Notes: a model not told the origin generated them from the letters alone. Shown: positions 10,041 to 50,343, counted from the stretch's first letter. The stretch: 64,000 nucleotides of DNA from Asaia bogorensis (GCA_943371375.1 CALRUM020000008.1:9164-73163); one strand, 5' to 3'. Numbers and translations: made by a program.

Positions 10041-12998
10041 ATGCTGACTTCGTGGGGGCTTCGTTCTCGTCTGGTGGCGCTGATTCTGGTCGCCATGCTG
10101 CCCCTGCTTGGCCTGCTGGTGTGGGCCCTGGTGGACCTGCAAGCGGACGCAGCCACACTGGTGCTGCAGGCGCTTGTCCTGCTGGCTGCCGCGCTGGCAG
10201 GCCTTGCCGTCGCCTGGTTCATGGGCCAGCGCATGATCGTCGATCCGGCGGCTGCCATTTTGCGCGAAGCCCGGGAGCTGGCGCGAGGCAACCTTGCGGC
10301 GCGGGTGGCCACCGTCACCGTGGACCGGGGCGAGCTGGGGCAGCTTGCCAGCACATTCAACAGCATGGCCGAATCCCTTCAGATGCGCCAGCGCGCGCTG
10401 GACCAGACGCTGCTGGAGGTCGGCAAAGAGCGCGCCATGCTGGACCTGATCATCAACAGCATGAGTGAAGGCGTGATTGCGGTGGATCTGCAGGACCGCT
10501 TTCTGCTGTTCAACGCGGCCGCGAGAAAAACCTTTGTAGAGCATCAGGCCGGCATGACGCTGACGCAATGGCGCCAGTGCCACGAGTTGCTGGTGCTCGG
10601 CCAGGAGCGGGTGTGTGAATCGCAGGACAGGCCCTTGAGCCGCGCGCTGCGCGGAGAGAGTGTGGACGGCCTGGACATGGTGCTGCGCCTGCCGTATCAG
10701 GAGGACCGGGTGCTGCGCAACAACGTGCGGCCGCTGCATGATGAAAGCGGCAGCCTGGTGGGGGCCCTGGCGGTGTTCACCGACATCACCGAGCGTCAGG
10801 CGGCCAAGGACTTTGCCCGCGACCAGGAGCAGGTGCTGGAGCTGATGGCTGGTGGCGTGCCCCTGCAGGAATCGCTGGACGCCATCGTGCGGCTGATCGA
10901 AGGCCGCGCACCGGGCAGCCTGTGCGCCATCATGTTGCGAGTGGGCGCGCAGCTGCGGCATGGCGCGGCGCCCAGTCTGCCGGCAGAACTGAACCGCCGC
11001 CTCGACGGGCTGGAAATTGCCGAAGGTGCGAGTGCCTGTGGAACCGCAGCTGCGCGAAAAAAAGCCGTAGTGGTCAGCGACATCGAACACGACCCCCTGA
11101 TGCGCAACTACCTGGCGCTGGCGCACGAGTTTGACCTGCAGGCGTGCTGGTCCACGCCGGTGCTCTCGGCCAGCGGCGCGGTGCTGGCCACCTTTGCGAT
11201 ATACCACCGCGCACCGTATGAGCCGCAAGCGCGCGACCACACCCTGGTGGAGTCCGCCGTCAGGCTGGCGCGTATTGCGATCGAAAGTGCCCGCGCCGGC
11301 CAAGCCCTGCTGGTCAGTGAGGCGCGGTTTCGCGAGCTTGCGGAGAACGTCGAGTCGGTGTTTTACAACCGTGACTTCGCCAGCGGCCGGTTTCTGTATG
11401 TCAGTCCCGCTTACGAAGAGCTTTGGGGCCGCAGCATAGCCAGCCTGGCTGACCAGCCCGATTCCTTCGGGCGCGGCATCCACCCGGACGATCAGGCCCA
11501 GCAGGCGCAGGGTGCACAGGCGCAGGCCAGTGGCGTCAGCACGCACCTGGAATACCGCATCATTCGCCCTGATGGCGCGGTGCGCTGGATTCGGGACCAT
11601 GCCTATCCGGTGACCAATTCTGCGGGTGTGGTGGAGCGGGTGGTGGGCACCGCGCGCGACATCACCGATCGCAAGCTGGCCGACCTGGAACTGGCGCGCA
11701 CCCACCGCGCGCTGCAAATGCTCAGCCGCTGCAATGAAACCGTGATCCGCGTGGACGACGAAGCCGGTTTGCTCAACGAGGTCTGCCGGCTGGCGGTTGA
11801 TCTGGGCGGTTACCGCATGGCCTGGGTCGGGTTTGCGCTCGACGACGAGGCCGGCAGCATTGTGCCCATGGCGCGCGCCGGACATGATGAGGGCTACCTG
11901 GCCAGCATCAAGCTCAGCTGGCACGACAGCGAAGAGATCGGACGCGGCCCCGCCGGCGAGGCCATCCGCAGCGGCCAGCCGCAGCAGCGCAGCGACATCA
12001 GCCAGCCGGACGCACATTTCAACTGGCATGTCCCGGCGATGGAGCGCGGTTACCGCAGCGCATTGATGCTGCCGCTGCGCGATGGCGCCCAGACCTTCGG
12101 CCTGTTGGGGCTGTATGCATCCGAGGTTCAGCTTTTCGCCGCTGAAGAGGTCAAGCTGTTGCAGGACATGGCCGATAACCTGGCGTTCGGCATCGGCAAC
12201 GTGCGCGCACGCCTGGAGCGAAAGCGCGCGCAGGAAGAAGTGCTGCGCCTGAACGCCAGCCTGGAAGACCGGGTGCAACAGCGCACCGCGCAGCTGGAGT
12301 TTGCCAACAAGCAGCTCGAGGCCTTTTCGTACTCCGTGTCGCACGATCTGCGCACGCCGCTCAGTGCTGTCGACGGGTTCAGCAACCTGCTGGCCCGCGA
12401 TCTGGACAACGCTGCAGCAACCGAGCGCAGCCGGCACTACCTGGCACGCATACGGGCCGGGGTCGCGCAGATGGGCGAGCTGATTGACGCCCTGCTGTCG
12501 CTGGCCCAGGTCTCACGCACCAGCCTGCGCTGGGACCAGGTGGACCTCAGCGCGATGGCCGATGCCATCTTCGCTGCGCTGCGCGAGCGTGAGCCCGAGC
12601 GCGATGTTGTGCTCGATATCCAGCCGGGACTGCGGGCCAGAGGCGACGCGCGCCTGTTGCAGCAGGTGCTCGCCAACCTGCTCGGCAACGCCTGGAAGTT
12701 CTGCGGAAAACAGCCGCAGACCCTGATTTCGTTCCGGCGCGAAAGTGCGTCGGACGCCGAAGACCTGTACGCCGTGCAGGACAACGGCGCCGGCTTCGAC
12801 ATGAGTTATTCGGACAAGCTGTTTGGCGCATTCCAGCGCCTGCACACGGTCTCAGAGTTCAGTGGGACCGGCGTCGGGCTGGCCACGGTTCACCGCATCA
12901 TCACGCGCCACGGCGGCAGGGTCTGGGCGACCTCCGAGCCGGGACAGGGTGCGACCTTTTATTTCACACTCGGCAACGCACCCAGCGACGAGGGCTGA
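10041..12998 (+). CDS. Multi-sensor histidine kinase (TM-HAMP-PAS-GAF-PAS/PAC-GAF-HisKA-HATPase)
   Basis: H-box FSYSVSHDLRTPL, N-box NLLGNAWKF, G1 DNGAGF, G2 GTGVGL; HAMP DELGQLASTFNSM; PAS/PAC IHPDD...EYRIIRPDGAVRWI. Confidence 0.93.
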   Translation: MLTSWGLRSRLVALILVAMLPLLGLLVWALVDLQADAATLVLQALVLLAAALAGLAVAWFMGQRMIVDPAAAILREARELARGNLAARVATVTVDRGELGQLASTFNSMAESLQMRQRALDQTLLEVGKERAMLDLIINSMSEGVIAVDLQDRFLLFNAAARKTFVEHQAGMTLTQWRQCHELLVLGQERVCESQDRPLSRALRGESVDGLDMVLRLPYQEDRVLRNNVRPLHDESGSLVGALAVFTDITERQAAKDFARDQEQVLELMAGGVPLQESLDAIVRLIEGRAPGSLCAIMLRVGAQLRHGAAPSLPAELNRRLDGLEIAEGASACGTAAARKKAVVVSDIEHDPLMRNYLALAHEFDLQACWSTPVLSASGAVLATFAIYHRAPYEPQARDHTLVESAVRLARIAIESARAGQALLVSEARFRELAENVESVFYNRDFASGRFLYVSPAYEELWGRSIASLADQPDSFGRGIHPDDQAQQAQGAQAQASGVSTHLEYRIIRPDGAVRWIRDHAYPVTNSAGVVERVVGTARDITDRKLADLELARTHRALQMLSRCNETVIRVDDEAGLLNEVCRLAVDLGGYRMAWVGFALDDEAGSIVPMARAGHDEGYLASIKLSWHDSEEIGRGPAGEAIRSGQPQQRSDISQPDAHFNWHVPAMERGYRSALMLPLRDGAQTFGLLGLYASEVQLFAAEEVKLLQDMADNLAFGIGNVRARLERKRAQEEVLRLNASLEDRVQQRTAQLEFANKQLEAFSYSVSHDLRTPLSAVDGFSNLLARDLDNAAATERSRHYLARIRAGVAQMGELIDALLSLAQVSRTSLRWDQVDLSAMADAIFAALREREPERDVVLDIQPGLRARGDARLLQQVLANLLGNAWKFCGKQPQTLISFRRESASDAEDLYAVQDNGAGFDMSYSDKLFGAFQRLHTVSEFSGTGVGLATVHRIITRHGGRVWATSEPGQGATFYFTLGNAPSDEG

Positions 12999-30874: not shown

Positions 30875-31087
30875 CTTGCCTCCGGCCGGACGGCGTGCAG
30901 TGGTGGGTGTGCGGGTTCATGGGTTCCTCTGGGCGAAGTGGCGATTGTGGCGCGGATTTGTGGCGCAATTCACACGGCCCCCCTGGATTAGCGTCTTCCA
31001 TCAGGCATAAACCTGCGTTATGGTGAGGTGTGTGCATATCGGGGTTCATGTGCAAAGGTTGTTGTCTTCCAGACCGGAGGTCCTTCA

Positions 31088-33445
31088 ATGAGCAAGCGTT
31101 CAGGTGCGGATAAGCAGGGGCAGCTGCTGCTGTCGCCGGGCCTCAAAGAGGCGCCGGTGCTGGACCTGATGTGTTCGCATTTTGTCCTGACCCTGGCCGC
31201 CCGGCAGGGCGCCAAGTTCAATGTGCGGCGTGACCTCAACAGCCTGCTGTCGCTGTCGGGCCGGCACCTGGTGTGGCCCTTGCCCGCGCTGCAGCGCTTG
31301 CGCGAATTCCTGGGCCGGCGTTGCCGTGACAACGAATTCTGGCGCGGCCATGAAGCCCTCAGCGATACCGAGTTCATGAACCGCCATGGCGCCTGGCGCG
31401 GCCCTTACGAAGAAGGCACGCTGTTTTTTTACCTCGATGAACACGCCAAGGACCAGCCCAAAGACCTGTTGTCGGTGCTGGGCGCCACCGGCGAGTGGCT
31501 GACCCAGGCGCTGAAAAAGCAATCCACGCTGGTGGAGAAAAACATTGCCGCGCTGGCCAATTTGCTGCAGCTCAACCAGGCCGAACGTGCGCTGCTGCTG
31601 TACGGAACGCTGGCGCGTTACCAGCGCGACCTGCGCTCCCTGCTGGTCGAGTTCAAGGTCAACAATGCGCCCGAAGCCTATGCCGCGATTGCCGAAGTGG
31701 CCGGCGTCAAGGCCAGCGAGGTGGCCGAAGCCTTGCGCGCCGGCTCGCGGCTGGAGCGCATCGGCATGGTGGAAAACCTGATTTCCGAGCACAACATCAC
31801 CGACCTGGCCGACCTGATGAAAGTCAGCGAAAAACTGCCACCGGTGCTGATGCGCGAGTACCGCGACCAGAACGAGCTGATGGCGGTGTTCACCCGGCCG
31901 GTGGACCGCAGCAGCCTGGGGCTGGCCGATTTTGCCTTTGCCCGCGACGATGTGCAGGTGCTGGTGGCGCTGCTGCGTCATGCGGTGCAGGGCAAGGAGC
32001 TGGGTGTCAATGTGCTGCTCTACGGCCCACCGGGCACCGGCAAGACCGAGCTGGCCAAGGTGGTGGCCCAGGCCGCCGGGCTCGATCTGTTCGAGGTCGA
32101 ATACGCGGACCGTGACGGCAACTCCCTGAGCGGCAGGGACCGCTACCGCTCGCTGCAGATTGCCCAGGTCTTTCTCAAGGGCAGCGCCCATGCCGCCCTG
32201 CTGTTTGACGAGGTCGAAGACGTGTTTCCGGCGATTTCCAGCGAGGCCGCGCAACTGCTCGCGCGTTCTGAGCAAATGGCGGCGCCGGCCACCGGTTCCG
32301 TCAACGGCAAAGCCTGGGTCAACCAGATTCTCGAGTCGAACACCGTTCCCACGCTGTGGGTCACGAACCGCATCGAGCAGATCGACCCGGCCTTTCGCCG
32401 CCGTTTTGCCTACCACCTGGAGCTCCAGTCCCCGCCGCCCGGCGCGCGTGAGGCGCTGGTGCGCAAGACACTCGAAGGGGTGCCGGTCAGCGAGGCCTTT
32501 CTCGCCAAACTGACCGGGCGCAAGGGCCTGACCCCGGCGCAGATTCGCACCGCAGTGCGTTTTGCCAAACTTGCCGGCAGTCCGGGCTTTGAGCCCGATG
32601 GCACGGACATGGCCGCCATGCTGCCGGGTGGCCAGGCCGCCTTGACCGAATCGCTGATTGAACGACAACTCAAAAACGCCGACCTGGCGTTGGGCAACAA
32701 GGCCGACGCCGCGGGGCGCCGCAGTGTCACCACCTACGACCTGGCCATGCTCAACGTTGAGTCGCGCTTTGAAGTCACACGCATCGTGGCGGCGCTCAAG
32801 GCCCGTGGCCATGGCACCCTGTGTTTTTACGGTGCGCCGGGCACCGGCAAGACGGCGCTGGCCGAGCACCTGGCCAAGGCGCTGGAGCGTCCGCTGCTGA
32901 TCAAGCAGGCGAGCGACCTGATGAGCAAATACGTGGGCGAAACCGAGCAGAACATGGCGGCGATGTTTGCCGAGGCCGAAGCCGAGAAAGCCGTGTTGCT
33001 GCTTGACGAGGCCGACAGCTTTTTGCAGGACAGGCGCGGCGCACAGCGCACCTACGAGGTGACCGAAGTCAATGAAATGTTGCAGGGCATGGAGCGTTTC
33101 AACGGCATTTTTGTCTGCACCACGAATCTGCTGGAAAGCCTGGACCAGGCGGCCTTGCGGCGCTTTACCTTCAAGATCAAGTTCATGCCCCTGACCGCCG
33201 TGCAACGGGAAAAAATGTTTGTCACTGAAGCGCTGGCCGGCAATGCCAGCCTGCTCGACGCCGGGCTGAGCCTGCGCCTGGCCAGGCTGGCGCAGCTGTG
33301 CCCTGGTGACTTTGCCGCAGTCAGGCGGCAGACCGACATCCTGGCGGTGGACTTCACGGCCGACGAGTTTTTAAGCCAGCTCGAAGCCGAGCACCGGATC
33401 AAGCCGGAAGTGCGGGAGGCACGGGGCATGGGGTTTATGCAGTAG
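31088..33445 (+). CDS. Tandem-AAA+ ATPase with uncharacterised N-terminal domain
   Basis: Two Walker A (GPPGTGKT, GAPGTGKT) and Walker B (LLFDEVED, LLLDEADS) motifs with IDPAFRRRF and LDQAALRRF arginine fingers. Confidence 0.88.
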   Translation: MSKRSGADKQGQLLLSPGLKEAPVLDLMCSHFVLTLAARQGAKFNVRRDLNSLLSLSGRHLVWPLPALQRLREFLGRRCRDNEFWRGHEALSDTEFMNRHGAWRGPYEEGTLFFYLDEHAKDQPKDLLSVLGATGEWLTQALKKQSTLVEKNIAALANLLQLNQAERALLLYGTLARYQRDLRSLLVEFKVNNAPEAYAAIAEVAGVKASEVAEALRAGSRLERIGMVENLISEHNITDLADLMKVSEKLPPVLMREYRDQNELMAVFTRPVDRSSLGLADFAFARDDVQVLVALLRHAVQGKELGVNVLLYGPPGTGKTELAKVVAQAAGLDLFEVEYADRDGNSLSGRDRYRSLQIAQVFLKGSAHAALLFDEVEDVFPAISSEAAQLLARSEQMAAPATGSVNGKAWVNQILESNTVPTLWVTNRIEQIDPAFRRRFAYHLELQSPPPGAREALVRKTLEGVPVSEAFLAKLTGRKGLTPAQIRTAVRFAKLAGSPGFEPDGTDMAAMLPGGQAALTESLIERQLKNADLALGNKADAAGRRSVTTYDLAMLNVESRFEVTRIVAALKARGHGTLCFYGAPGTGKTALAEHLAKALERPLLIKQASDLMSKYVGETEQNMAAMFAEAEAEKAVLLLDEADSFLQDRRGAQRTYEVTEVNEMLQGMERFNGIFVCTTNLLESLDQAALRRFTFKIKFMPLTAVQREKMFVTEALAGNASLLDAGLSLRLARLAQLCPGDFAAVRRQTDILAVDFTADEFLSQLEAEHRIKPEVREARGMGFMQ

Positions 33446-33451
33446 CCGTTT

Positions 33452-33478
33452 GTCATCCCGGACCTGATCCGGGATCCA
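33452..33478. repeat. Short GTCATCCCG-type palindromic repeat (REP/RPE-like)
   Basis: GTCATCCCGGACCTGATCCGGGATCCA with 8-bp stem ATCCCGGA/TCCGGGAT, just after the AAA stop codon. Confidence 0.6.
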
Positions 33479-33523
33479 TGTGTGCTGACTACTTTGCTCC
33501 ACTGTTTAGTGGTGCGCCTGCAA

Positions 33524-33944
33524 GCCGGGGGTTGCCCGGCGGCAAGTAACTTTCTTTTGCGTCGCCAAAAGAAAGTCACCAAAGAAAAGGCGACCCGATG
33601 GTCTGGGTCCCTCCGCTGCGCTACGGGCAACCTGCGGTGCTCGCCGAAAACGGGGTCTCGCTCGAACTCGCTGCGCTCAGACAATCGCTCGCCCTGATCC
33701 GTTTTCGGCTGCGCTCTTCGGCCCAGCCCGACGGGTGGGAGACCGAACGCGGGTGCGGGGAGCCTTGACGCGCTCCGCGCGTCAAGGCGTATTTCAGTTG
33801 GCCGCCATGTTTGCACGCGGGAGCAGCGCACGTGGCCAAATGAGGTCCCCCTCCATCGCCCAGCGGGGGCGAGGGAGGGGTTAGGGGTGGGAGTGGGGAG
33901 TTAGACCCTACTGCCCCGAGCAGACCTCAGGCGCAGCGTGATGC
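33524..33944. mobile_element. Composite non-coding repeat family B, copy 1 (non-autonomous element or structured RNA)
   Basis: Collinear with 39320-39749 over ~420 bp with long identical blocks and compensatory changes in stems; no transposase ORF. Confidence 0.75.
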
Positions 33945-33967
33945 TCCAAACGCTGGCCGGTCAACCC

Positions 33968-35728
33968 TCAGAGCTGAATCAGCCGGATCGCCTTGCGCGA
34001 ACCGTCGTTCATTTCCCTGGCCACCTGCATCATGCGGTCCAGACAGGCCGGTGCCTGCTCGGGGGCCAGGCGTACCGGCCCCGCCAGGTAGCCGATGGCG
34101 ATGTGGAACAGCAGCGGATCGGCATCCGGCAATTCAGAGGTGGTTCGCAGGCCGCTGGCCAGGATTTTGGTGGCCAGCCGGTTCACCGAATCGCTGCTCA
34201 TCGGCCCCTCCAGCAACAGCGCAAAGTGGCTGTCACCGACACGCGCCACGGTGTCGGTCGGCTTGGTCACGGCCAGTATGCGGGCGGCGGCCAGCACCAT
34301 GGCGCGGTCGCCAGTTTCGCGGCCATGTTTGAGCTGCAGGCTGGTCTGGTTGCTCAGGTCGATGATCATCAGAGCGCAGGGCTGCTGGTAACGTTCGGCG
34401 GTACTCAGCGCCTGGCGCAGCTTGCCCAGCAGCGGCCGGGTGGTGAGCAGACCGGTCAGCGGGTCGGTGGTGCGCAGGGTACTGGCCCGCGTGCTGGGCT
34501 CTTCACGCCGGGTGATGCGGCGCAGCAGACCGTAAAAAAGAATCGGCGCCTCGATGGCCGAGCCCAGAATCAGCGCGTTCTGGGTCAGAAAGCTGGAGGC
34601 GATCAGCCCGAAGTTGCGCAGCAAGGGGAACAGGGTGGCCAGGATAATCGGCAAAAACCCCAGCGCAATCCAGCGTGCGTGGCGGTCGCCTTCCACCAGC
34701 GAGACCCCGACCACCATCAGCAGCACCACCATGCCGGCGCTGACCAGGATGTTGATCAGCGCAAAACTCTCGGGCGTCGGAAAGGCGGCATCGAGCAGGC
34801 CGACCAGCGGCGCAAGCCACATCAATGCCAGGATCAGCCAGTCCAGTGCCCGGAAAAAACGCCCCGGCGTGGTCACGGTGCGCACAAACCACAGCGCAGC
34901 AGCCGCGGCCAGCAGCGGCAGCAGCACAATCGCCATGTTGTTGAGCTGCGGCAGCTCCGGCCACAGGTACAGGCCGGCGATACCCTTGAAGGCGGCCTGG
35001 GAGCCGGCAAAGGTGCCGAGGTAGACCGCGTAACTTGCAAAACCACGGTCGCGGTAGGCCACTGCATTGAGCAGCGCGAGAACCGTCACCAGCAGCGCCA
35101 GCCCGAAATAGGCACCGAGGAACAGGTGTTCCAGCTGGCGCGAGGTCGTCACCCCCTCGGCGCTGAGCACCCTCGGCAGGGCTGAAAAAGGAACACGCGC
35201 ATGCTCCACCCGCAGGTAATAACGAACGCTGGCCCCGGCCTCATGGCTCAGGGAAAAAATCGGGTAACGCGCAGGCTGGGGCCAAACGCTGATGGGCAGG
35301 CTGTCACCGGCTTGCTGTACCACCCAGCGGCCCAGGCTGTCCCGGTAATAAAGCGCGATTTTGTCCACGCCGGACATCGGCAGTTCAAGTTTCCAGTGAA
35401 CTCCGGGGTCCTGCACCGTCGCGTCAAAACGCAGCCAGAGCGCCGCGTCGTCAAGCGGGTACTTTTTATCGGCGACAACGGCAGCAAAAGGCAGGCGCCC
35501 GGCATCGGCTTCAACCTTTTCCAAAGTAGTTTTGCCGCCCACATCGACCCAGAAATCCAGCGCCTGTGTCAGCGCCACCGGACCGTTGTCGCGGCTCAGG
35601 GTCAGTGAATCGCCGCCCCATGCGGGGCCAGCCAGCAGCAGCGCCGGTAAAAACACGAGGCCCGCAAGCGCCCGCACAGCGCGTGCCAGGGCGGCACGCC
35701 GGGGGGTGAGGGATGGGACGACGGACAC
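33968..35728 (-). CDS. 7TMR-DISM sensor protein with degenerate GGDEF domain
   Basis: Periplasmic 7TMR-DISMED2-like region, 7 TM helices, TDPLTGL, and VARVGDSHF in place of GG(D/E)EF; start is approximate. Confidence 0.85.
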   Translation of the reverse strand: MSVVPSLTPRRAALARAVRALAGLVFLPALLLAGPAWGGDSLTLSRDNGPVALTQALDFWVDVGGKTTLEKVEADAGRLPFAAVVADKKYPLDDAALWLRFDATVQDPGVHWKLELPMSGVDKIALYYRDSLGRWVVQQAGDSLPISVWPQPARYPIFSLSHEAGASVRYYLRVEHARVPFSALPRVLSAEGVTTSRQLEHLFLGAYFGLALLVTVLALLNAVAYRDRGFASYAVYLGTFAGSQAAFKGIAGLYLWPELPQLNNMAIVLLPLLAAAAALWFVRTVTTPGRFFRALDWLILALMWLAPLVGLLDAAFPTPESFALINILVSAGMVVLLMVVGVSLVEGDRHARWIALGFLPIILATLFPLLRNFGLIASSFLTQNALILGSAIEAPILFYGLLRRITRREEPSTRASTLRTTDPLTGLLTTRPLLGKLRQALSTAERYQQPCALMIIDLSNQTSLQLKHGRETGDRAMVLAAARILAVTKPTDTVARVGDSHFALLLEGPMSSDSVNRLATKILASGLRTTSELPDADPLLFHIAIGYLAGPVRLAPEQAPACLDRMMQVAREMNDGSRKAIRLIQL

Positions 35729-35765
35729 GCGCCTATTGTGCCGCAGCAGACCGGATTTTCCGGGC

Positions 35766-37643
<1,878 letters not shown>

Positions 37644-37658
37644 GATGGCGGGGACAAT

Positions 37659-37714
37659 GCTATGAAATAGTGAGCTGACTACGCAGATGAGACAAGGGTT
37701 GCAAGCGATATTTG
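37659..37714 (+). repeat. REP-like repeat family A, copy upstream of recQ
   Basis: Head GCTATGAAATAGTGAGC, body TGACTACGCAGATGAGACAAGGGTTGCAAGCGATATTTG. Confidence 0.65.
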
Positions 37715-37729
37715 CCAGAAAGAAAACGG

Positions 37730-38122
37730 CTACATCTGCTCCCAGGGCAAACCGTCAAAGCGCCAGCCGCTCAGGCTGGAGCGCTGAAACTGCTCGTCGA
37801 GTTCACCCTCGAAGCCATGCACGATGTTGATCACTTCGGTAAAACCTGCTGCCTCCAGCGCCTGGCCGGCATCGAGTGTGCGTTTGCCCGAGCGGCAGAT
37901 CAGCAAGACCGGCTGCTCCTTGCTGCTGGCTTCGCTTTCCACCGCCGCCGCAAACTTTTGCGCATCGGGCGTCAGATCCGGGTATTCGTACCAGGGCACG
38001 TTGACCACGCCGGGCGGCCGACCCACATACAGTGACTCGATTTCCATGCGCACGTCCACAAACAGCGCGTCGGGGCGCTGCTGCAGGTAGTCCCAGGCTT
38101 CTTTGGGTTGAAGGTGTTTCAT
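37730..38122 (-). CDS. Rhodanese-like domain protein
   Basis: [16 protein letters not shown] active-site loop, IVHGFEG, GW. Confidence 0.9.
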
Positions 38123-38214
38123 GCGTGGGCCTCGGGCGGTGAGCGGTCCGGCTATTGTCCAGGGAAATCAGCATGATTCTGGCAGGCAAATGGCGGCCAC
38201 CTTAAAATGCGGCC

Positions 38215-39261
38215 ATGAAGCAAGCCATCTACACCCGCGGAGCCGCGCTCCCTGCCGTACTTGAACAACGCATCGCCATTCTTGACGGCGCCATGGGCAC
38301 CATGATCCAGCGCTTCAAACTCAATGAAGCGCAGTACCGCGGCGAACGTTTCAGGGACTTCCACAAGGACGTCAAGGGCAACAACGAGTTGCTGAGCCTG
38401 ACACGGCCCGACGTGATCCAGGACATCCACGAAGGCTATCTGGCCGCTGGCGCCGACATGATAGAGACCAACACCTTCGGCGCCACCACCGTGGCCCAGG
38501 CCGACTACGACATGGCCGAGCTCGCGGTCGAAATGAATTACGAGTCCGCCCGCATAGCGCGCGCCGCCTGCGACAAGTTTTCCACACCCGACAAGCCGCG
38601 TTTTGTCGTTGGCGCCCTGGGCCCCACACCCAAAACCGCCAGCATCAGCCCCGACGTCAACGACCCCGGCGCGCGCAACACCAGCTTTGAAGAGCTGCGC
38701 AAGGCCTATTACGAGCAGACCGAAGCCCTGGTCAAGGGCGGCGCCGACGTGTTGCTGGTCGAGACGATTTTCGACACGCTCAACGCCAAGGCCGCGCTGT
38801 TTGCGATTGACGAGTACTTCGACAACAGCGGCGAGCGCCTGCCGCTGATCATCAGCGGCACGGTCACCGACGCCTCGGGCCGTATCCTGAGCGGCCAGAC
38901 CGTCACGGCGTTCTGGCACAGCATCCGCCATGCCCAGCCGCTGGCCGTGGGCCTGAACTGCGCACTCGGCGCGACGTTGATGCGCCCCTACATCCAGGAG
39001 CTGGCGCGGGTGGCGGGTGACACCTTCATCAGCTGTTATCCGAACGCCGGTTTGCCCAACCCCATGAGCGACACCGGCTTTGACGAAACGCCGGACGTGA
39101 CCTCGCGCCTGCTGCGCGAGTTTGCCGCCGAAGGGCTGGTGAATATCGTCGGCGGTTGCTGCGGGACGACGCCGGAGCATATTGGGGCGATTCATGAGGC
39201 CGTCAAACCGCTGGCGCCGCGCGGGATTCAACGCGGGTTTTTCTACAAGGAAGCGGCCTGA
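38215..39261 (+). CDS. metH: Methionine synthase, stand-alone homocysteine-binding (N-terminal) domain
   Basis: [41 protein letters not shown]; ends after ~348 aa with no folate or cobalamin domains. Confidence 0.88.
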
Positions 39262-39319
39262 ATAGCTGACGGGTCTCAGCAGAGCCAGTTTGATTCAACC
39301 GGCAGTGGGTTGCCAGCTG

Positions 39320-39749
39320 GCCGGGTCTCGCCCCGGCGGGCGACTCACTTTCTCTTGCGTCGCCAAGAGAAAGTAAGCAAAGAGAAGGCGACCCGATGGT
39401 CAGGGTCCTTCCGCTTTGCTCCAGGCAACCTGCGGTGCTCGCCGTTAACGGGGGCTAGCTCGAACTCGCCTTCGGCTCAGACAATCGCTCGCCCTGATCC
39501 GTTTTCGGCTGCGCTCCTCGGCCCAGCCCGACGGGTGGGGGAAACAAATGCGGGTTCGGATGCGGGGAGACGATGACGCGGAGAGCGCGTCATCGTCGGA
39601 CTACGCGGCGGTCATGTTTGCACGCGGGGGCAGCACACGCGGCCAAATGAGGTCCCCCTCCATCGCCCAGCGGGGCGAGGGAGGGGTTAGGGGTGGGAGT
39701 GGGGAGTTAGTCCTACTGTCTAACGCAAGCCCGAGACGCAGCGTGATGC
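39320..39749. mobile_element. Composite non-coding repeat family B, copy 2
   Basis: Same orientation and module order as 33524-33944; also lies between convergent genes. Confidence 0.75.
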
Positions 39750-39759
39750 CGGCAACACC

Positions 39760-40659
39760 TCAGCTCAGCACCACACTGCTCAAGCGCCGCCGGTAAGTCG
39801 CCACCACCGGATCATCCGGCGGAATCTGGCCGTCGGCGACCTTGACCCGGGGCGGCTCGATGATTTCCAGGATGGACACAAAGGTCTTGCGTGCCAGTTC
39901 CCCGTTCCAGGATTTGTCGCGCATCAGGATTTCCAGCAACTCGTCCATCGCCGCCACCCACTGCTGCTGGCTCATGTGCAGTTGTGCCAGCGCGTAACGT
40001 GTGTCGAAGTCCCGCTTGTTGCCTGCAAGTTTTGCATCGAATCCGGCTTTGGCCAGCGCCGCATCTGCGTGAGCAGCTCCTGATTCAATAGCGTTGAGCC
40101 AGTGTTGCAGGGCCTCCAGCTTGCGCACCACCGGCGCTTTGCTGGCTACGGGCGCAAAAGCGGTTTTGGCGTGTTCGACCTGGCCGTGCTGCAGCAGCAG
40201 GCGGATGTAATCGAAGCGTGCGTTGTCGTTGGCCGGGTCGGTGGCAACGGCTGCCTGCAGTTTTTCCAGCACCGCTGCCGGGCTGCTGTCTTCCGGCTCC
40301 GCCATTTCTTCTTCGGCCGGTGGCAACTCTTCGGCCGGCGGCAGGTGTTTGTCGAGAAACTCCTTGACCTTGCCTTCGGGCAGCGCGCCCTGAAAACCGT
40401 CCACCGGCTGGCCGTTGACCATCAGTATGCAGGTCGGAATGCTGCGAATGCCAAAGGCGGCGCCCAGTTGCTGCTCCTGGTCGGAGTCGATCTTGACCAG
40501 CTTGAAGCGTCCGCCGTAGGCGATTTCCACTTTCTCCAGGATGGGCCCCAGAGATTTGCAGGGTCCGCACCAGGGCGCCCAGAAATCAATCAGCACGGGG
40601 GTGGTCATGGAAGCCGCAATGACTTCCTCCTCAAAATTGGCAATGGTGGCGTCGATCAT
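39760..40659 (-). CDS. ybbN: Thioredoxin/TPR co-chaperone YbbN (CnoX)
   Basis: DFWAPWCGPCK, FGIRSIP, C-terminal TPR ELLEILMRDKSWN...YRRRLSS. Confidence 0.9.
   Translation of the reverse strand: MIDATIANFEEEVIAASMTTPVLIDFWAPWCGPCKSLGPILEKVEIAYGGRFKLVKIDSDQEQQLGAAFGIRSIPTCILMVNGQPVDGFQGALPEGKVKEFLDKHLPPAEELPPAEEEMAEPEDSSPAAVLEKLQAAVATDPANDNARFDYIRLLLQHGQVEHAKTAFAPVASKAPVVRKLEALQHWLNAIESGAAHADAALAKAGFDAKLAGNKRDFDTRYALAQLHMSQQQWVAAMDELLEILMRDKSWNGELARKTFVSILEIIEPPRVKVADGQIPPDDPVVATYRRRLSSVVLS
40036..40092 (-). repeat. Family A repeat-derived segment embedded in frame in ybbN
   Basis: Minus strand reads GCTATTGAATCAGGAGC-TGCTCACGCAGATGCGGCGCTGGCCAAAGCCGGATTCGAT, encoding AIESGAAHADAALAKAGFD. Confidence 0.65.
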
Positions 40660-40772
40660 GATGCTGGGCAAATAGGGGTGGATCAGGAAGTTTTCAACCG
40701 GCTGGCGGGCAAGGACGGGACGATAGCACGCTGGCCCGTAAAATCGGCGATGGCAGCTAACCGAAGGTACAC

Positions 40773-41279
40773 ATGACAACGCAAGATCAAAATGCGCCCC
40801 TCATCGGCGTGGTGATGGGCTCCAGCAGCGACTGGAGCACCATGCAGCATGCGGTGCAGATCCTCCAGCAGTTCGGCGTGGCGCATGAGGCGCGCGTGGT
40901 TTCGGCGCACCGCATGCCGGACGAGCTGTTTGCCTATGCCGAGCAGGCCGCCGGGCGCGGTCTCCAGGCCATCATTGCCGGCGCTGGCGGCGCCGCCCAT
41001 CTGCCGGGCATGCTGGCGGCCAAAACCGCCGTGCCGATACTCGGCGTTCCGGTGGCCAGCAACCATTTGCAGGGTGTCGATTCGCTGCACAGTATTGTGC
41101 AGATGCCCAAGGGTGTGCCGGTCGCGACTTTTGCCATTGGCAACGCCGGCGCTGCCAATGCCGCCCTGTTTGCTGTGGCCATGCTGGCCACCCACGACAA
41201 AACGCTGGCCGACAAGCTGCAGGCCTTCCGCGCCGAACAGACCGCCGCTGCGCGCGCCATGACACTTCCTCCCGCATGA
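40773..41279 (+). CDS. purE: N5-CAIR mutase
   Basis: [37 protein letters not shown]. Confidence 0.97.
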
Positions 41280-43578: not shown

Positions 43579-44448
43579 ATGAGCCTTGATCCCGAATTCC
43601 CCAGGGTCAGCGCTGTACCGGCCATGGCCGCGTTGCTGGCGCAATTGCGTGCAGGCGGCGACGCCGCCGCGACAGAGCAGGAAATCCTGCGCATCACCGG
43701 CTTCCTGGAGGCTGAACTGAAGCAGCGCAGCGCCGAGCTGGCCGCTGCAAACAGCGAGCTGGAGAATTTTTCCTATTCGGTCTCGCACGACCTGCGCGCG
43801 CCGCTGAGCACCATAGACGGCTTCAGCCGTCTGCTGGAGGGCGCGGTGGCCAAGGGCAATGCGGAACGCAGCACGCACTACCTGCAGCGCATACGCCTGG
43901 GTGTGGCCAATATCAATGAGCTGATTGCTGCCCTGCTGGCAGTGTCGCGCCTGCTGCGTGCGCCCATGACGCTGCAGACGGTGGATCTGGCTGCGCTGGC
44001 TGCCGAGGTATTTGCAGCGCTGCAGCAGGCCGAGCCGGAGCGGGTGCTGCAGCTCAGCATCCAGCCCGGGCTGCAGGTGCGTGGTGACCCGGCCCTGATC
44101 CGGCAACTGGTTGAGCATCTGGCCGGCAACGCCTGGAAGTTCAGCGCCAAAAAAGACCGCGTACAGATTGCGGTGGGCAGCCAGCCGGGGCCGGCTGGCG
44201 AGACGGTTTATTTTTTCCGCGACAACGGCGCAGGTTTCGACATGGCGCATGCGGACAAGCTGTTTGGCATCTTTCAGCGCCTGCATGTGTCGTCGGACTT
44301 TCCGGGCATAGGCGCGGGCCTGAGCGCGGTGCAGCGCATCGTGCTTCGCCATGGCGGGCGTGTCTGGGCGCAGGCGCTGCCGGAGCAGGGGGCCACGATT
44401 TATTTCACGCTGGCAGCGTCGGCGCCCGGTCTTGCCGCTGCTGCCTGA
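43579..44448 (+). CDS. Minimal histidine kinase (HisKA-HATPase with almost no sensor region)
   Basis: FSYSVSHDLRAPL, HLAGNAWKF, DNGAGF, GIGAGL; only ~60 aa precede the H-box; start uncertain (43522-43624). Confidence 0.8.
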   Translation: MSLDPEFPRVSAVPAMAALLAQLRAGGDAAATEQEILRITGFLEAELKQRSAELAAANSELENFSYSVSHDLRAPLSTIDGFSRLLEGAVAKGNAERSTHYLQRIRLGVANINELIAALLAVSRLLRAPMTLQTVDLAALAAEVFAALQQAEPERVLQLSIQPGLQVRGDPALIRQLVEHLAGNAWKFSAKKDRVQIAVGSQPGPAGETVYFFRDNGAGFDMAHADKLFGIFQRLHVSSDFPGIGAGLSAVQRIVLRHGGRVWAQALPEQGATIYFTLAASAPGLAAAA

Positions 44449-46862: not shown

Positions 46863-46897
46863 AATTCGACAAGCGCAGGCGCCATGCCTTCATCCAA

Positions 46898-46992
46898 GCA
46901 GGGGCCGCGGAACCGGCTTAGCCGGGCCGCAGGCGCAGCGGCCCCCCCGGGGCTGGTGCCTGCGGCTCCGAACCTGCTTGAGCAGGTTCGGA
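46898..46992 (+). repeat. GC-rich palindromic repeat family C, copy 1 (within the 214-bp gap of a two-component operon)
   Basis: GCAGGGGCCGCGGAACCGGCTTAGCCGGGCCGCAGGCGC matches the reverse complement of the 50266-50321 copy at 35 of 39 nt; adjacent TCCGAACCTGCT/AGCAGGTTCGGA hairpin. Confidence 0.7.
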
Positions 46993-50265: not shown

Positions 50266-50321
50266 CCCCCCTCGAGGGGGCGGCGCCTGCGGTCTGGCTA
50301 AGCCAGTCCCGCGGCCCCTGC
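50266..50321 (-). repeat. GC-rich palindromic repeat family C, copy 2
   Basis: Reverse complement GCAGGGGCCGCGGGACTGGCTTAGCCAGACCGCAGGCGC; lies between convergent recX and argC. Confidence 0.7.
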
Positions 50322-50343
50322 TGGCGAAGAGGAGTGCGTGGGG

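Follow-up and report, generated by a model that had tools for sequence, protein, structure and literature searches.

A repeat family made of two folded, non-coding modules is represented twice, as copies A and B, in a 64,000-nucleotide stretch of DNA (GCA_943371375.1, CALRUM020000008.1:9164-73163, listed as Asaia bogorensis; hereafter the window). The element is a real, widespread composite repeat and apparently an undescribed one; our search of the literature found no description of it. Its unit consists of a 28-bp hairpin similar to the repetitive extragenic palindromic (REP) sequences, here called r, a spacer, module A (about 230 bp), a hairpin H and module B (about 205 bp). Across copies, one strand of module A is shown to have remained foldable into about nine helices, and each module holds a motif that could form an intrastrand triplex. 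We propose that the element is a DNA-level, non-autonomous mosaic repeat, akin to REP sequences, to bacterial interspersed mosaic elements (BIME) and to neisserial intergenic mosaic elements (NIME), and that its folded + strand is under selection. We consider this reading to have an even chance of being right.

Conserved folding of module A

The evidence for folding comes from an alignment of 53 diverse module-A copies, in which 55 proposed pairs in nine helices were tested for covariation. Standard pairs fill 97.7% of the cells, as against 88.4% after shuffling (none of 500 shuffles was as high) and 40-52% when the partners are slid. Compensatory change is found in 21 pairs, versus 3-8 with slid partners, and the covariation score is 0.273, while slid partners score at most 0.093. 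The first-pass annotation of this DNA had seen selection on folding in two copies, and the family at large bears it out.

Individual helices illustrate the pattern. At pair 26-39 of helix 1, 30 sequences have UA, 22 have CG and one has AU. In helix 7 (GCCGAAAACGG / CCGTTTTCGGC), seven of the nine pairs are compensated, one of them being CG in 23 sequences, GC in 21 and AU in three; the compensated variants include GGTCAAAGCGG / CCGCTTTGACC and GGTCCAGCCGG / CCGGCTGGACC. A C(UUCG)G-type loop is closed by compensatory stems, GCC-TTCG-GGC and GGC-TTCG-GCC.

Two triplex-type motifs on the same strand

The A/T-rich motif of module A, as read in copy A, is composed of a pyrimidine strand Y (CTTTCTTTTG), a loop CGTCGC, a purine strand R (CAAAAGAAAG), a spacer TCAC and a third strand RH (CAAAGAAAAGG). 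R forms Watson-Crick pairs with Y, and RH mirrors R. Among 141 parsed copies, Y and R are complementary at 8/8 positions in 115 and RH is an 8/8 mirror of R in 117; when RH was permuted among copies (2000 runs), perfect mirrors numbered 40 on average and 57 at most. There are five fully consistent three-way variants, given here as Y / R / RH: TTTCTTTT / AAAAGAAA / AAAGAAAA; TTTTCTTT / AAAGAAAA / AAAAGAAA; TTTCTCTT / AAGAGAAA / AAAGAGAA; TTCTTTTT / AAAAAGAA / AAGAAAAA; and TTTCTTTC / GAAAGAAA / AAAGAAAG. The second window copy differs from the first by a single substitution coordinated across the three segments, and its variant, the third of those listed, is present in 19 parsed copies. Length variants also exist, in which all three segments are one base longer or shorter together. 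Behind the mirror strand, a GGCGAC can pair with the loop GTCGCC (helix 3); this pairing is invariant, and covariation neither supports nor refutes it.

In the G/C-rich motif of module B, studied in 56 copies, the third strand has T or A opposite an A-T pair. Its R/RH variants are GGGAGGGG/GGGGTGGG, GGGAGGGG/GGGGAGGG and GGGAAGGG/GGGTTGGG, the last being part of a coordinated Y / R / RH variant, CCCTTCTC / GGGAAGGG / GGGTTGGG. The second loop is TTA, CTA or CGG.

We know of no templated copying that makes mirror repeats, and of no two-fold symmetric DNA-binding protein that reads them. Segments that co-vary in two unrelated motifs on the same strand are hard to explain without selection for a triplex-capable fold. 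A class II (purine-motif) intrastrand triplex consists of a pyrimidine strand, a purine strand and a mirror purine strand, with G.G-C and A/T.A-T triplets (PMC4666352). This layout is present in both motifs, in modules A and B alike, on the + strand. By these rules both motifs could form an intrastrand triplex on that strand, and their coordinated changes suggest that cells select for a triplex-capable fold.

DNA or RNA

Which strand folds, and is it DNA or RNA that does so? At five pairs G.T is frequent on the + strand (8 to 50 of 53 sequences), whereas A.C, the sign of a wobble on the other strand, does not exceed 4/53 at any pair; thus it is the + strand that has been kept as the folding strand. 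Purine-motif triplexes have been reported to form in DNA and not in RNA (PMC4666352). On the minus strand, the T of the module B third strand would be an A, which is disallowed in a pyrimidine-motif triplex. As for signals of transcription, Rfam 15 gave no match at the gathering score in the window, and between 33400 and 34000 only a chance match (E = 2.5) at E<=10. No sigma-70-like promoter was found by a promoter scan of copies A and B, and a terminator scan returned weak terminator-like matches on the minus strand only. Taken together, the wobbles and purine-type motifs on the + strand and the lack of transcript signals favour single-stranded DNA.

The first-pass annotation had left the choice between a non-autonomous element and a repeated structured RNA. 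Of these, the element fits a dispersed multi-copy family with variable occupancy that is handled in trans, and positive evidence for RNA did not emerge. An RNA family would have its copies transcribed, in 3′ untranslated regions or as small RNAs, with the fold stabilising the message, stopping transcription or binding a protein. It may take two forms: a + strand pseudoknot with an A-rich strand lying along a helix, or a minus-strand pseudoknot with a U.A-U triple helix. The strong covariation at 21 pairs would suit such a family, as would the confinement of fixed G.U-type wobbles to the + strand, the C(UUCG)G-type loop with its compensatory stem variants, and the position of copies just past stop codons, mainly between convergent genes. 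The minus-strand form gains from an A/T motif that follows U.A-U / C+.G-C rules on that strand and from the terminator-like matches there. It recalls the triple-helix RNA pseudoknots of telomerase RNA, ENE and SAM-II, with U-rich, U-rich and A-rich strands, one C+.G-C and a closing helix; it differs from them in that the loop crossing the closing helix is only 1-2 nt and that this helix lacks covariation. Moreover, the wobble asymmetry opposes the minus-strand form, as does the mostly T third strand of module B, and the purine-type motifs speak against the + strand form. Both forms are opposed by the Rfam result up to E = 10, by the missing promoter and by an orientation that is mixed among co-directional genes (4 copies point with the gene and 4 or 5 against it). 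In addition, copies at the same site in different species are not nearest relatives (see below), which would be unexpected for conserved local RNA genes. We therefore regard a structured RNA family as rather unlikely.

Copy number, spread and architecture

The window's own genome (G000; G, C and L numbers are our handles for genomes, contigs and loci) is taken as a Polaromonas, with 3.95 Mb in 32 contigs. With copy A as the query, a whole-genome search of it gave 55 matches and blastn 76 pieces, and a profile (nhmmer) search gave 71 module-A and 32 module-B matches in 61 clusters. These ~61 loci, two of them in the window, are spread over 29 of the 32 contigs. Most contig ends fall within copies of the element, which means that the true copy number is somewhat below the raw count and that the repeat family broke the assembly.

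A genome-wide count, which the first-pass annotation had recommended, thus goes far beyond two copies. It refutes a local duplication as the origin of the two in the window, an explanation which, like that of a decayed gene, we give practically no chance. A duplication would agree with their spacing, just 5.8 kb, and with their common orientation. Yet the nearest sequences to each window copy are copies elsewhere (88%), not the other window copy (83-86%), and the site of copy A is without the element in relatives that carry copy B. A decayed gene is opposed by the lack of any open reading frame (ORF) with a family match.

Among 24 congeners searched, 16 carry the element and eight have no copy; module A is more widespread than module B within the genus. 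When public genomes were scanned for an exact pattern, module A turned up in Polaromonas (most matches), Variovorax, Acidovorax, Xenophilus, Rhodoferax and Giesbergeria, from which we conclude that the window's organism is a Polaromonas and that the family spans the Comamonadaceae. A search of phages gave no match, and the only matches in a plasmid collection were to a 2.5-Mb Variovorax replicon and a 4.9-Mb Aeromonas record; the element is absent from phages and true plasmids. The Aeromonas caviae match (NZ_AP026896.1, 4.9 Mb, 395887-395938) covers 52 nt at 85% and concerns the A/T-rich triplex region alone, so that the A/T motif may exist as a separate unit outside the Comamonadaceae.

Modules are combined in several ways in the window's own genome: r-A-B, tandem A-A-B, tail-to-tail A+/A- pairs centred on H, and A alone. 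Hairpin H is the symmetry centre of the palindromic A-H-A forms; its stem measures 11 bp in the consensus built from 56 copies of module B, and its arm sequences vary between copies. The 28-bp r (TGTCATCCCGGACTTGATCCGGGATCCA in its general form) stands at the 5′ start of many copies. At no more than 4 mismatches it occurs 91 times in the genome, with compensatory arm variants, and 34 of the 91 precede a similarly oriented module A by 22-37 nt. Inverted pairs of r occur as well (for example C1:287891/287962 and a locus in G017). The number of r per genome tracks that of the element, the same eight congeners lacking both.

In 22 full copies that we aligned, the 3′ end is sharp (...GCAGCGTGATGC) and similarity vanishes right past GTGATGC. 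The 5′ end, TGTCATCCCGG... or TGCCTGCAAGCCGGG..., and this 3′ end are not mutual inverted copies. The first-pass annotation had noted neither a terminal inverted repeat nor a target duplication, and none is visible in the 22 copies, with the limit, as regards the duplication, that the empty sites of relatives are too diverged to be a firm guide.

Several copies have received insertions or enclose other genes. In two copies (C2:295334-295669 and C9:74999-75268), the G-rich motif of module B is interrupted precisely at its TTA loop by an element of 270-336 bp whose ends, GGGGATGCGCTGCCTGACTC ... GAGTCAGGCAGCGCATCCC, are true inverted repeats. These two inserts, the only copies in the genome, are 97% identical, and one has 66 bp extra inside. 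An insertion of about 51 bp (GTCACGTAGTGGGGATTCGCTCACTTCGCGAAGCGAAGTTACGCGAATACC) splits the mirror strand of the A/T motif at an identical position in two genomes (C3:59068-59350 and L112:4572-4856). Three genes, one for a Bug/TctC-type binding protein and two for proteins of unknown function, are enclosed at C2:294899-299492 by a tail-to-tail pair of full elements. We considered whether an inverted pair of this kind carries such genes as cargo; between the same flanking genes, however, the interval ranges from 0 to ~6 kb in congeners, some of which lack the element, and the case is ambiguous.

Sites, turnover and gene order

In 28 clusters for which both flanking genes were called, 17 have convergent, 10 co-directional and one divergent flanks. 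Occupancy of the sites varies among species. The comparison with empty sites, also suggested by the first-pass annotation, shows no element at the site of copy A (loci L153-L158 in relatives) in G006, G008, G009, G023, G054, G070 and G075, seven relatives in all, so that copy A and its r are a gain in this lineage. No recognisable repeat is present at this site in G023 and G070. In the other five the site holds an unrelated repeat of ~57 bp with a GCTA..N7..TAGC head, so that distinct repeat families colonise one convergent intergenic site. The site of copy B contains r-A-B in G006, G008 and G011, r-A-H-A-r in G023, an inverted pair of A in G009 and only a pair of r in G017; hence the same-site counterparts in G006 and G008 carry r.

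At least 10 of the 16 full copies in G006 sit at sites that are occupied in G000 too. In nine same-site comparisons, the copy at the corresponding site was never the most similar one, its rank being between 7th and 53rd of 53; the best matches to the copies so tested are 90-97% identical and lie at other sites. Flanking genes are only ~77-92% identical between these two genomes. Within the window's own genome, the identity of a copy to its nearest neighbour has a median of 94.7%, and module A subfamilies are common to several species. Since same-site copies are never nearest relatives, the occupying sequences have been exchanged or replaced while the sites persist. The exchange is either by gene conversion among copies or by repeated insertion at the same places. 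For about five of the 16 G006 copies (L161, L162, L163, L171 and L172), the flanks map to non-adjacent places within G000 contigs, a count that has no control set.

Could the element instead serve its host, in the manner proposed for the REP sequences and BIMEs of E. coli, as a site for a nucleoid protein or gyrase, as a barrier where transcription units converge, or as a hot spot of recombination and rearrangement? The persistence of many sites between species with such diverged flanking genes would be in line with this, as would module A subfamilies that are more alike across species (90-97% identical) than the flanks are, and the strong preference for convergent gene ends. The breaks in gene order at about five G006 copies echo the link between TMECO repeats and rearrangement (PMC4666352), with the reservation on controls just given. 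On the other side, eight of 24 congeners do without any copy and have the same flanking genes, which makes the element dispensable; unrelated repeats occupy these intergenic sites elsewhere in the genus; and no protein partner is known. We judge a host-beneficial DNA element improbable.

Search for a partner enzyme

The first-pass annotation had also suggested a link to a nuclease or transposase gene, which did not materialise. TnpB (PF07282) has no match in the genome, IscB not having been searched separately, and the IS110, GIY-YIG and DUF559 families were not searched as such. Clustering of 587 ORFs around 107 loci in many genomes revealed no recurrent neighbour gene, be it a transposase or an integrase. 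An IS200/IS605 TnpB guide RNA (omega RNA), or a remnant of one, was rejected on these two grounds. Having no ORF, no inverted ends, no visible target duplication and no recurrent neighbour, the element fits the description of a non-autonomous sequence handled in trans.

A single gene of the Y1_Tnp family, resembling the REP-associated tyrosine transposases (RAYT), lies at C5:104281-104976, upstream of a large glutamate synthase gene. There is no r within ~2 kb of it, even at 7 mismatches, and the gene is present as a single copy in 23 of the 24 congeners, including all eight that lack r and module A. It was rejected as the mobiliser, being unflanked by r and present where the repeats are not; retention as a single copy in so many congeners makes it look domesticated. 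A hairpin (GATGCGCTGCATCCCAGCGCATC) just upstream of this gene is not a repeat family.

A proposed DNA element maintained in trans

In the reading that we prefer, it is as single-stranded DNA and not as RNA that the fold would matter. A process working on DNA in trans would maintain the family, whether it writes copies into intergenic sites or acts by gene conversion among them. Surviving copies would be those between genes, chiefly at 3′ ends, where little harm may come of them. A bolder version, which we hold only tentatively, is that a nine-helix fold of single-stranded DNA, locked by two triplexes, is the substrate of a copying or recombination machinery that writes or overwrites copies at intergenic docking sites marked by r.

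Several points weigh against a DNA-level repeat with a selected + strand. No enzyme could be linked to it, and no junction was caught that shows the mechanism, the flanks being too diverged for a clean empty site. If exposure as single-stranded DNA during replication mattered, a replication bias would be expected; 28 copies are in leading and 20 in lagging orientation, which is no bias. A + strand RNA would account equally well for the G.U asymmetry and the C(UUCG)G loop, and the A/T motif on the minus strand could form a U.A-U triple helix as RNA. Triplex formation is deduced from sequence rules. The helix variants reassort between copies and trace to a few old subfamilies, which leaves ~3-7 independent events per helix. 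Finally, gene orientation across the genome was taken from a simple gene caller of our own, checked against Pfam in the window.

Relation to known repeats

The potential intrastrand triplex (PIT), BoxC and TMECO repeats of E. coli and other bacteria (Hoyne et al. 2000, cited in PMC4666352; Holder et al. 2015, PMC4666352) bear on both motifs. The TMECO pattern is CCCTCNCCC N3-6 GGGNGAGGG N3 GGGNGAGGG, with a second loop TTA (type A) or CCG (type B) (PMC4666352). Holder et al. found that the BoxC/TMECO motif forms a DNA triplex in vitro; TMECO is linked to genome rearrangement, and no function has been found for it (PMC4666352). Our element resembles these repeats in the succession of pyrimidine, purine and mirror purine on one strand, in a G/C-rich stem of 8-9 nt and, in part, in the 3-nt second loop of module B, where TTA equals type A and CGG is not the CCG of type B. 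It is likewise intergenic and multi-copy, sometimes in inverted pairs, and has no link to transposons, phages or plasmids.

The differences are nevertheless considerable. The strict TMECO pattern has 0 matches on either strand of the window's own genome, the module B motif being CCCCCTCC N19 GGGAGGGG TTA GGGGTGGG. Its stem sequence differs, its first loop is 19 nt with a 6-bp hairpin of its own, and it forms the tail of a 420-bp folded element with a second, A/T-rich motif. The loops of 8 and 19 nt in our element exceed the 1-6 nt permitted by the published ITxF search, which may explain why it seems uncatalogued. Copies of the element favour gene 3′ ends, whereas TMECO is more often upstream of ORFs (PMC4666352).

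To REP sequences, BIMEs and the REPIN-RAYT system the element is linked by r, a short imperfect palindrome with ~90 copies and compensatory arms, found singly or in inverted pairs. Mosaic intergenic clusters at gene 3′ ends, long persistence at sites and a single-copy Y1 gene in the genome are further likenesses to REP/BIME. It is set apart by modules of 200-230 bp with many helices, as compared with palindromes of 20-40 bp. As to REPIN-RAYT membership, palindrome pairs are found for r only and not for modules A and B, and neither a flanking cognate RAYT nor co-occurrence with one is seen.

Neisserial NIMEs are intergenic repeat units of 50-150 bp bounded by dRS3 hairpin repeats, and dRS3 are the integration sites of phages that use an IS110-type recombinase. 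The resemblance is one of description only, repeat units accompanied by a short hairpin, and the style of r (GTCAT-CCCGG..CCGGG-ATCC) recalls the neisserial GTCATTCCCGC..GCGGGAATCC; no link to a phage or an IS110-type recombinase was seen for our element. Miniature inverted-repeat transposable elements (MITE) such as Correia and ERIC are similar in being non-coding, a few hundred bp long, numerous, strongly folding and variable in occupancy. Our element differs from them in lacking terminal inverted repeats, and the genuine MITE inserted in two module B copies looks quite different.

The beta-proteobacterial repeat BRE, of ~90 bp, has 29 copies in Polaromonas sp. JS666 (Hot et al. 2011, PMC3110155). 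It is intergenic too and has the 10-mer GCGCAGCGTG in common with the 3′ end of module B. Identity with BRE was rejected, as its sequence is different and BRE-like matches in the window's own genome lie elsewhere than at module B ends (PMC3110155 supplement sequences).

The two copies in the window

Copy A spans 33451-33944 and copy B 39306-39749 in window coordinates, both on the + strand. They agree in 86% of alignment columns over ~430 bp, with identical module order and orientation, and a repeat finder reports them as co-linear direct-repeat blocks (families D2, D3, D4, D10 and D15). The outline drawn by the first-pass annotation thus holds: two modular non-coding copies, a long conserved block (CTCAGACAATCGCTCGCCCTGATCCGTTTTCGGCTGCGCTC, found in copies A and B alike), a G-rich tail module, and convergent flanking genes at both copies, as seen from gene calls with Pfam. 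Its limits needed correction, since the 5′ boundary of copy A lies further upstream and begins with r. The compensatory arms that it described for the central hairpin both pair, their sequences differing between the copies with the pairing retained. The GC hairpin of copy B has the alternative form TCGCCC-CGGC-GGGCGA. The first-pass annotation had also found no ORF of note, and a Pfam search of the small ORFs within copies A and B matched no family. The features are collected in Table 1.

Table 1. Elements of copies A and B and their flanking genes, in window coordinates.
Feature	Position	Strand	Description
AAA ATPase gene	31028-33445	+	upstream flank of copy A
Copy A r hairpin, 28 bp, REP-like	33451..33478	+	TGTCATCCCGGACCTGATCCGGGATCCA; 6 nt past the AAA ATPase stop codon
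Copy A module A, ~230 bp	33510..33739	+	nhmmer, model positions 2-233
Copy A GC hairpin	33524..33546	+	helix 1; TTGCC-CGGC-GGCAA, overlapping GCCGGG/CCCGGC
Copy A A/T-rich potential intrastrand triplex	33550..33594	+	three-way covariation; Y TTTCTTTT 33551-58; R AAAAGAAA 33567-74; mirror strand AAAGAAAA 33581-88
Copy A closed multi-helix domain	33594..33736	+	helices 4-9 in the covariation test; outer helix CCCGATGGTCTGGGTCC / GGCCCAGCCCGACGGG around helix GCCGAAAACGGGGTC..GATCCGTTTTCGGC, conserved loop CTCGAACTCGC..GCTCAGACAATCGC
Copy A module B, ~205 bp	33746..33944	+	nhmmer, model positions 13-210; sharp end GGCGCAGCGTGATGC (33930-33944)
Copy A central hairpin H	33763..33787	+	arms CCTTGACGCG (33763-33772) / CGCGTCAAGG (33778-33787) pair
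Copy A G/C-rich potential intrastrand triplex, BoxC/TMECO type	33847..33900	+	coordinated variants; Y CCCCCTCC 33847-54; inner hairpin TCGCCC/GGGCGA; R GGGAGGGG 33873-80; loop TTA; RH GGGGTGGG 33884-91; G-rich tail
7TMR-DISM GGDEF protein gene	33968-35827	-	downstream flank of copy A
Homocysteine S-methyltransferase gene	38215-39261	+	upstream flank of copy B
Copy B module A, without upstream r	39306..39539	+	nhmmer, model positions 2-233
Copy B A/T-rich triplex motif	39348..39392	+	TTTCTCTT (39349-56) / AAGAGAAA (39365-72) / AAAGAGAA (39379-86)
Copy B module B	39543..39749	+	nhmmer, model positions 3-210; end GACGCAGCGTGATGC (39735-39749)
Copy B central hairpin H	39570..39596	+	arms ACGATGACGCG (39570-39580) / CGCGTCATCGT (39586-39596) pair
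Copy B G/C-rich triplex motif		+	CCCCCTCC (39654-61), GGGAGGGG (39679-86), TTA, GGGGTGGG (39690-97)
Thioredoxin-TPR protein gene	39760-40779	-	downstream flank of copy B

Two other pairs of repeats were observed in the window. A GC-rich inverted repeat of 56 nt (AGCAGGGGCCGCGGAACCGGCTTAGCCGG...; 46897-46952 and 50267-50322, 80% complementary, 3.3 kb apart) is probably a member of another repeat family. A direct repeat of 191 nt (12780-12970 and 44221-44411, 70% identity, 31 kb apart) possibly stems from paralogous genes.

Significance

At the practical level, these repeats break short-read assemblies of Comamonadaceae and are worth annotating and masking. With its natural variants, variably occupied sites and copies exchanged between sites, the family also offers an experimental system. 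The formation and relevance of triplexes in bacterial cells have been a question since PIT and BoxC were described, and the family brings evolutionary evidence to it, from more than 100 copies and several genera. If the tentative version, in which a triplex-locked fold is the substrate for copying at r-marked sites, is true, the three-way covariation would prove, by comparison of copies, that an intramolecular DNA triplex is under selection in living cells, and the docking sites could host gene-order breaks and the exchange of variable genes.

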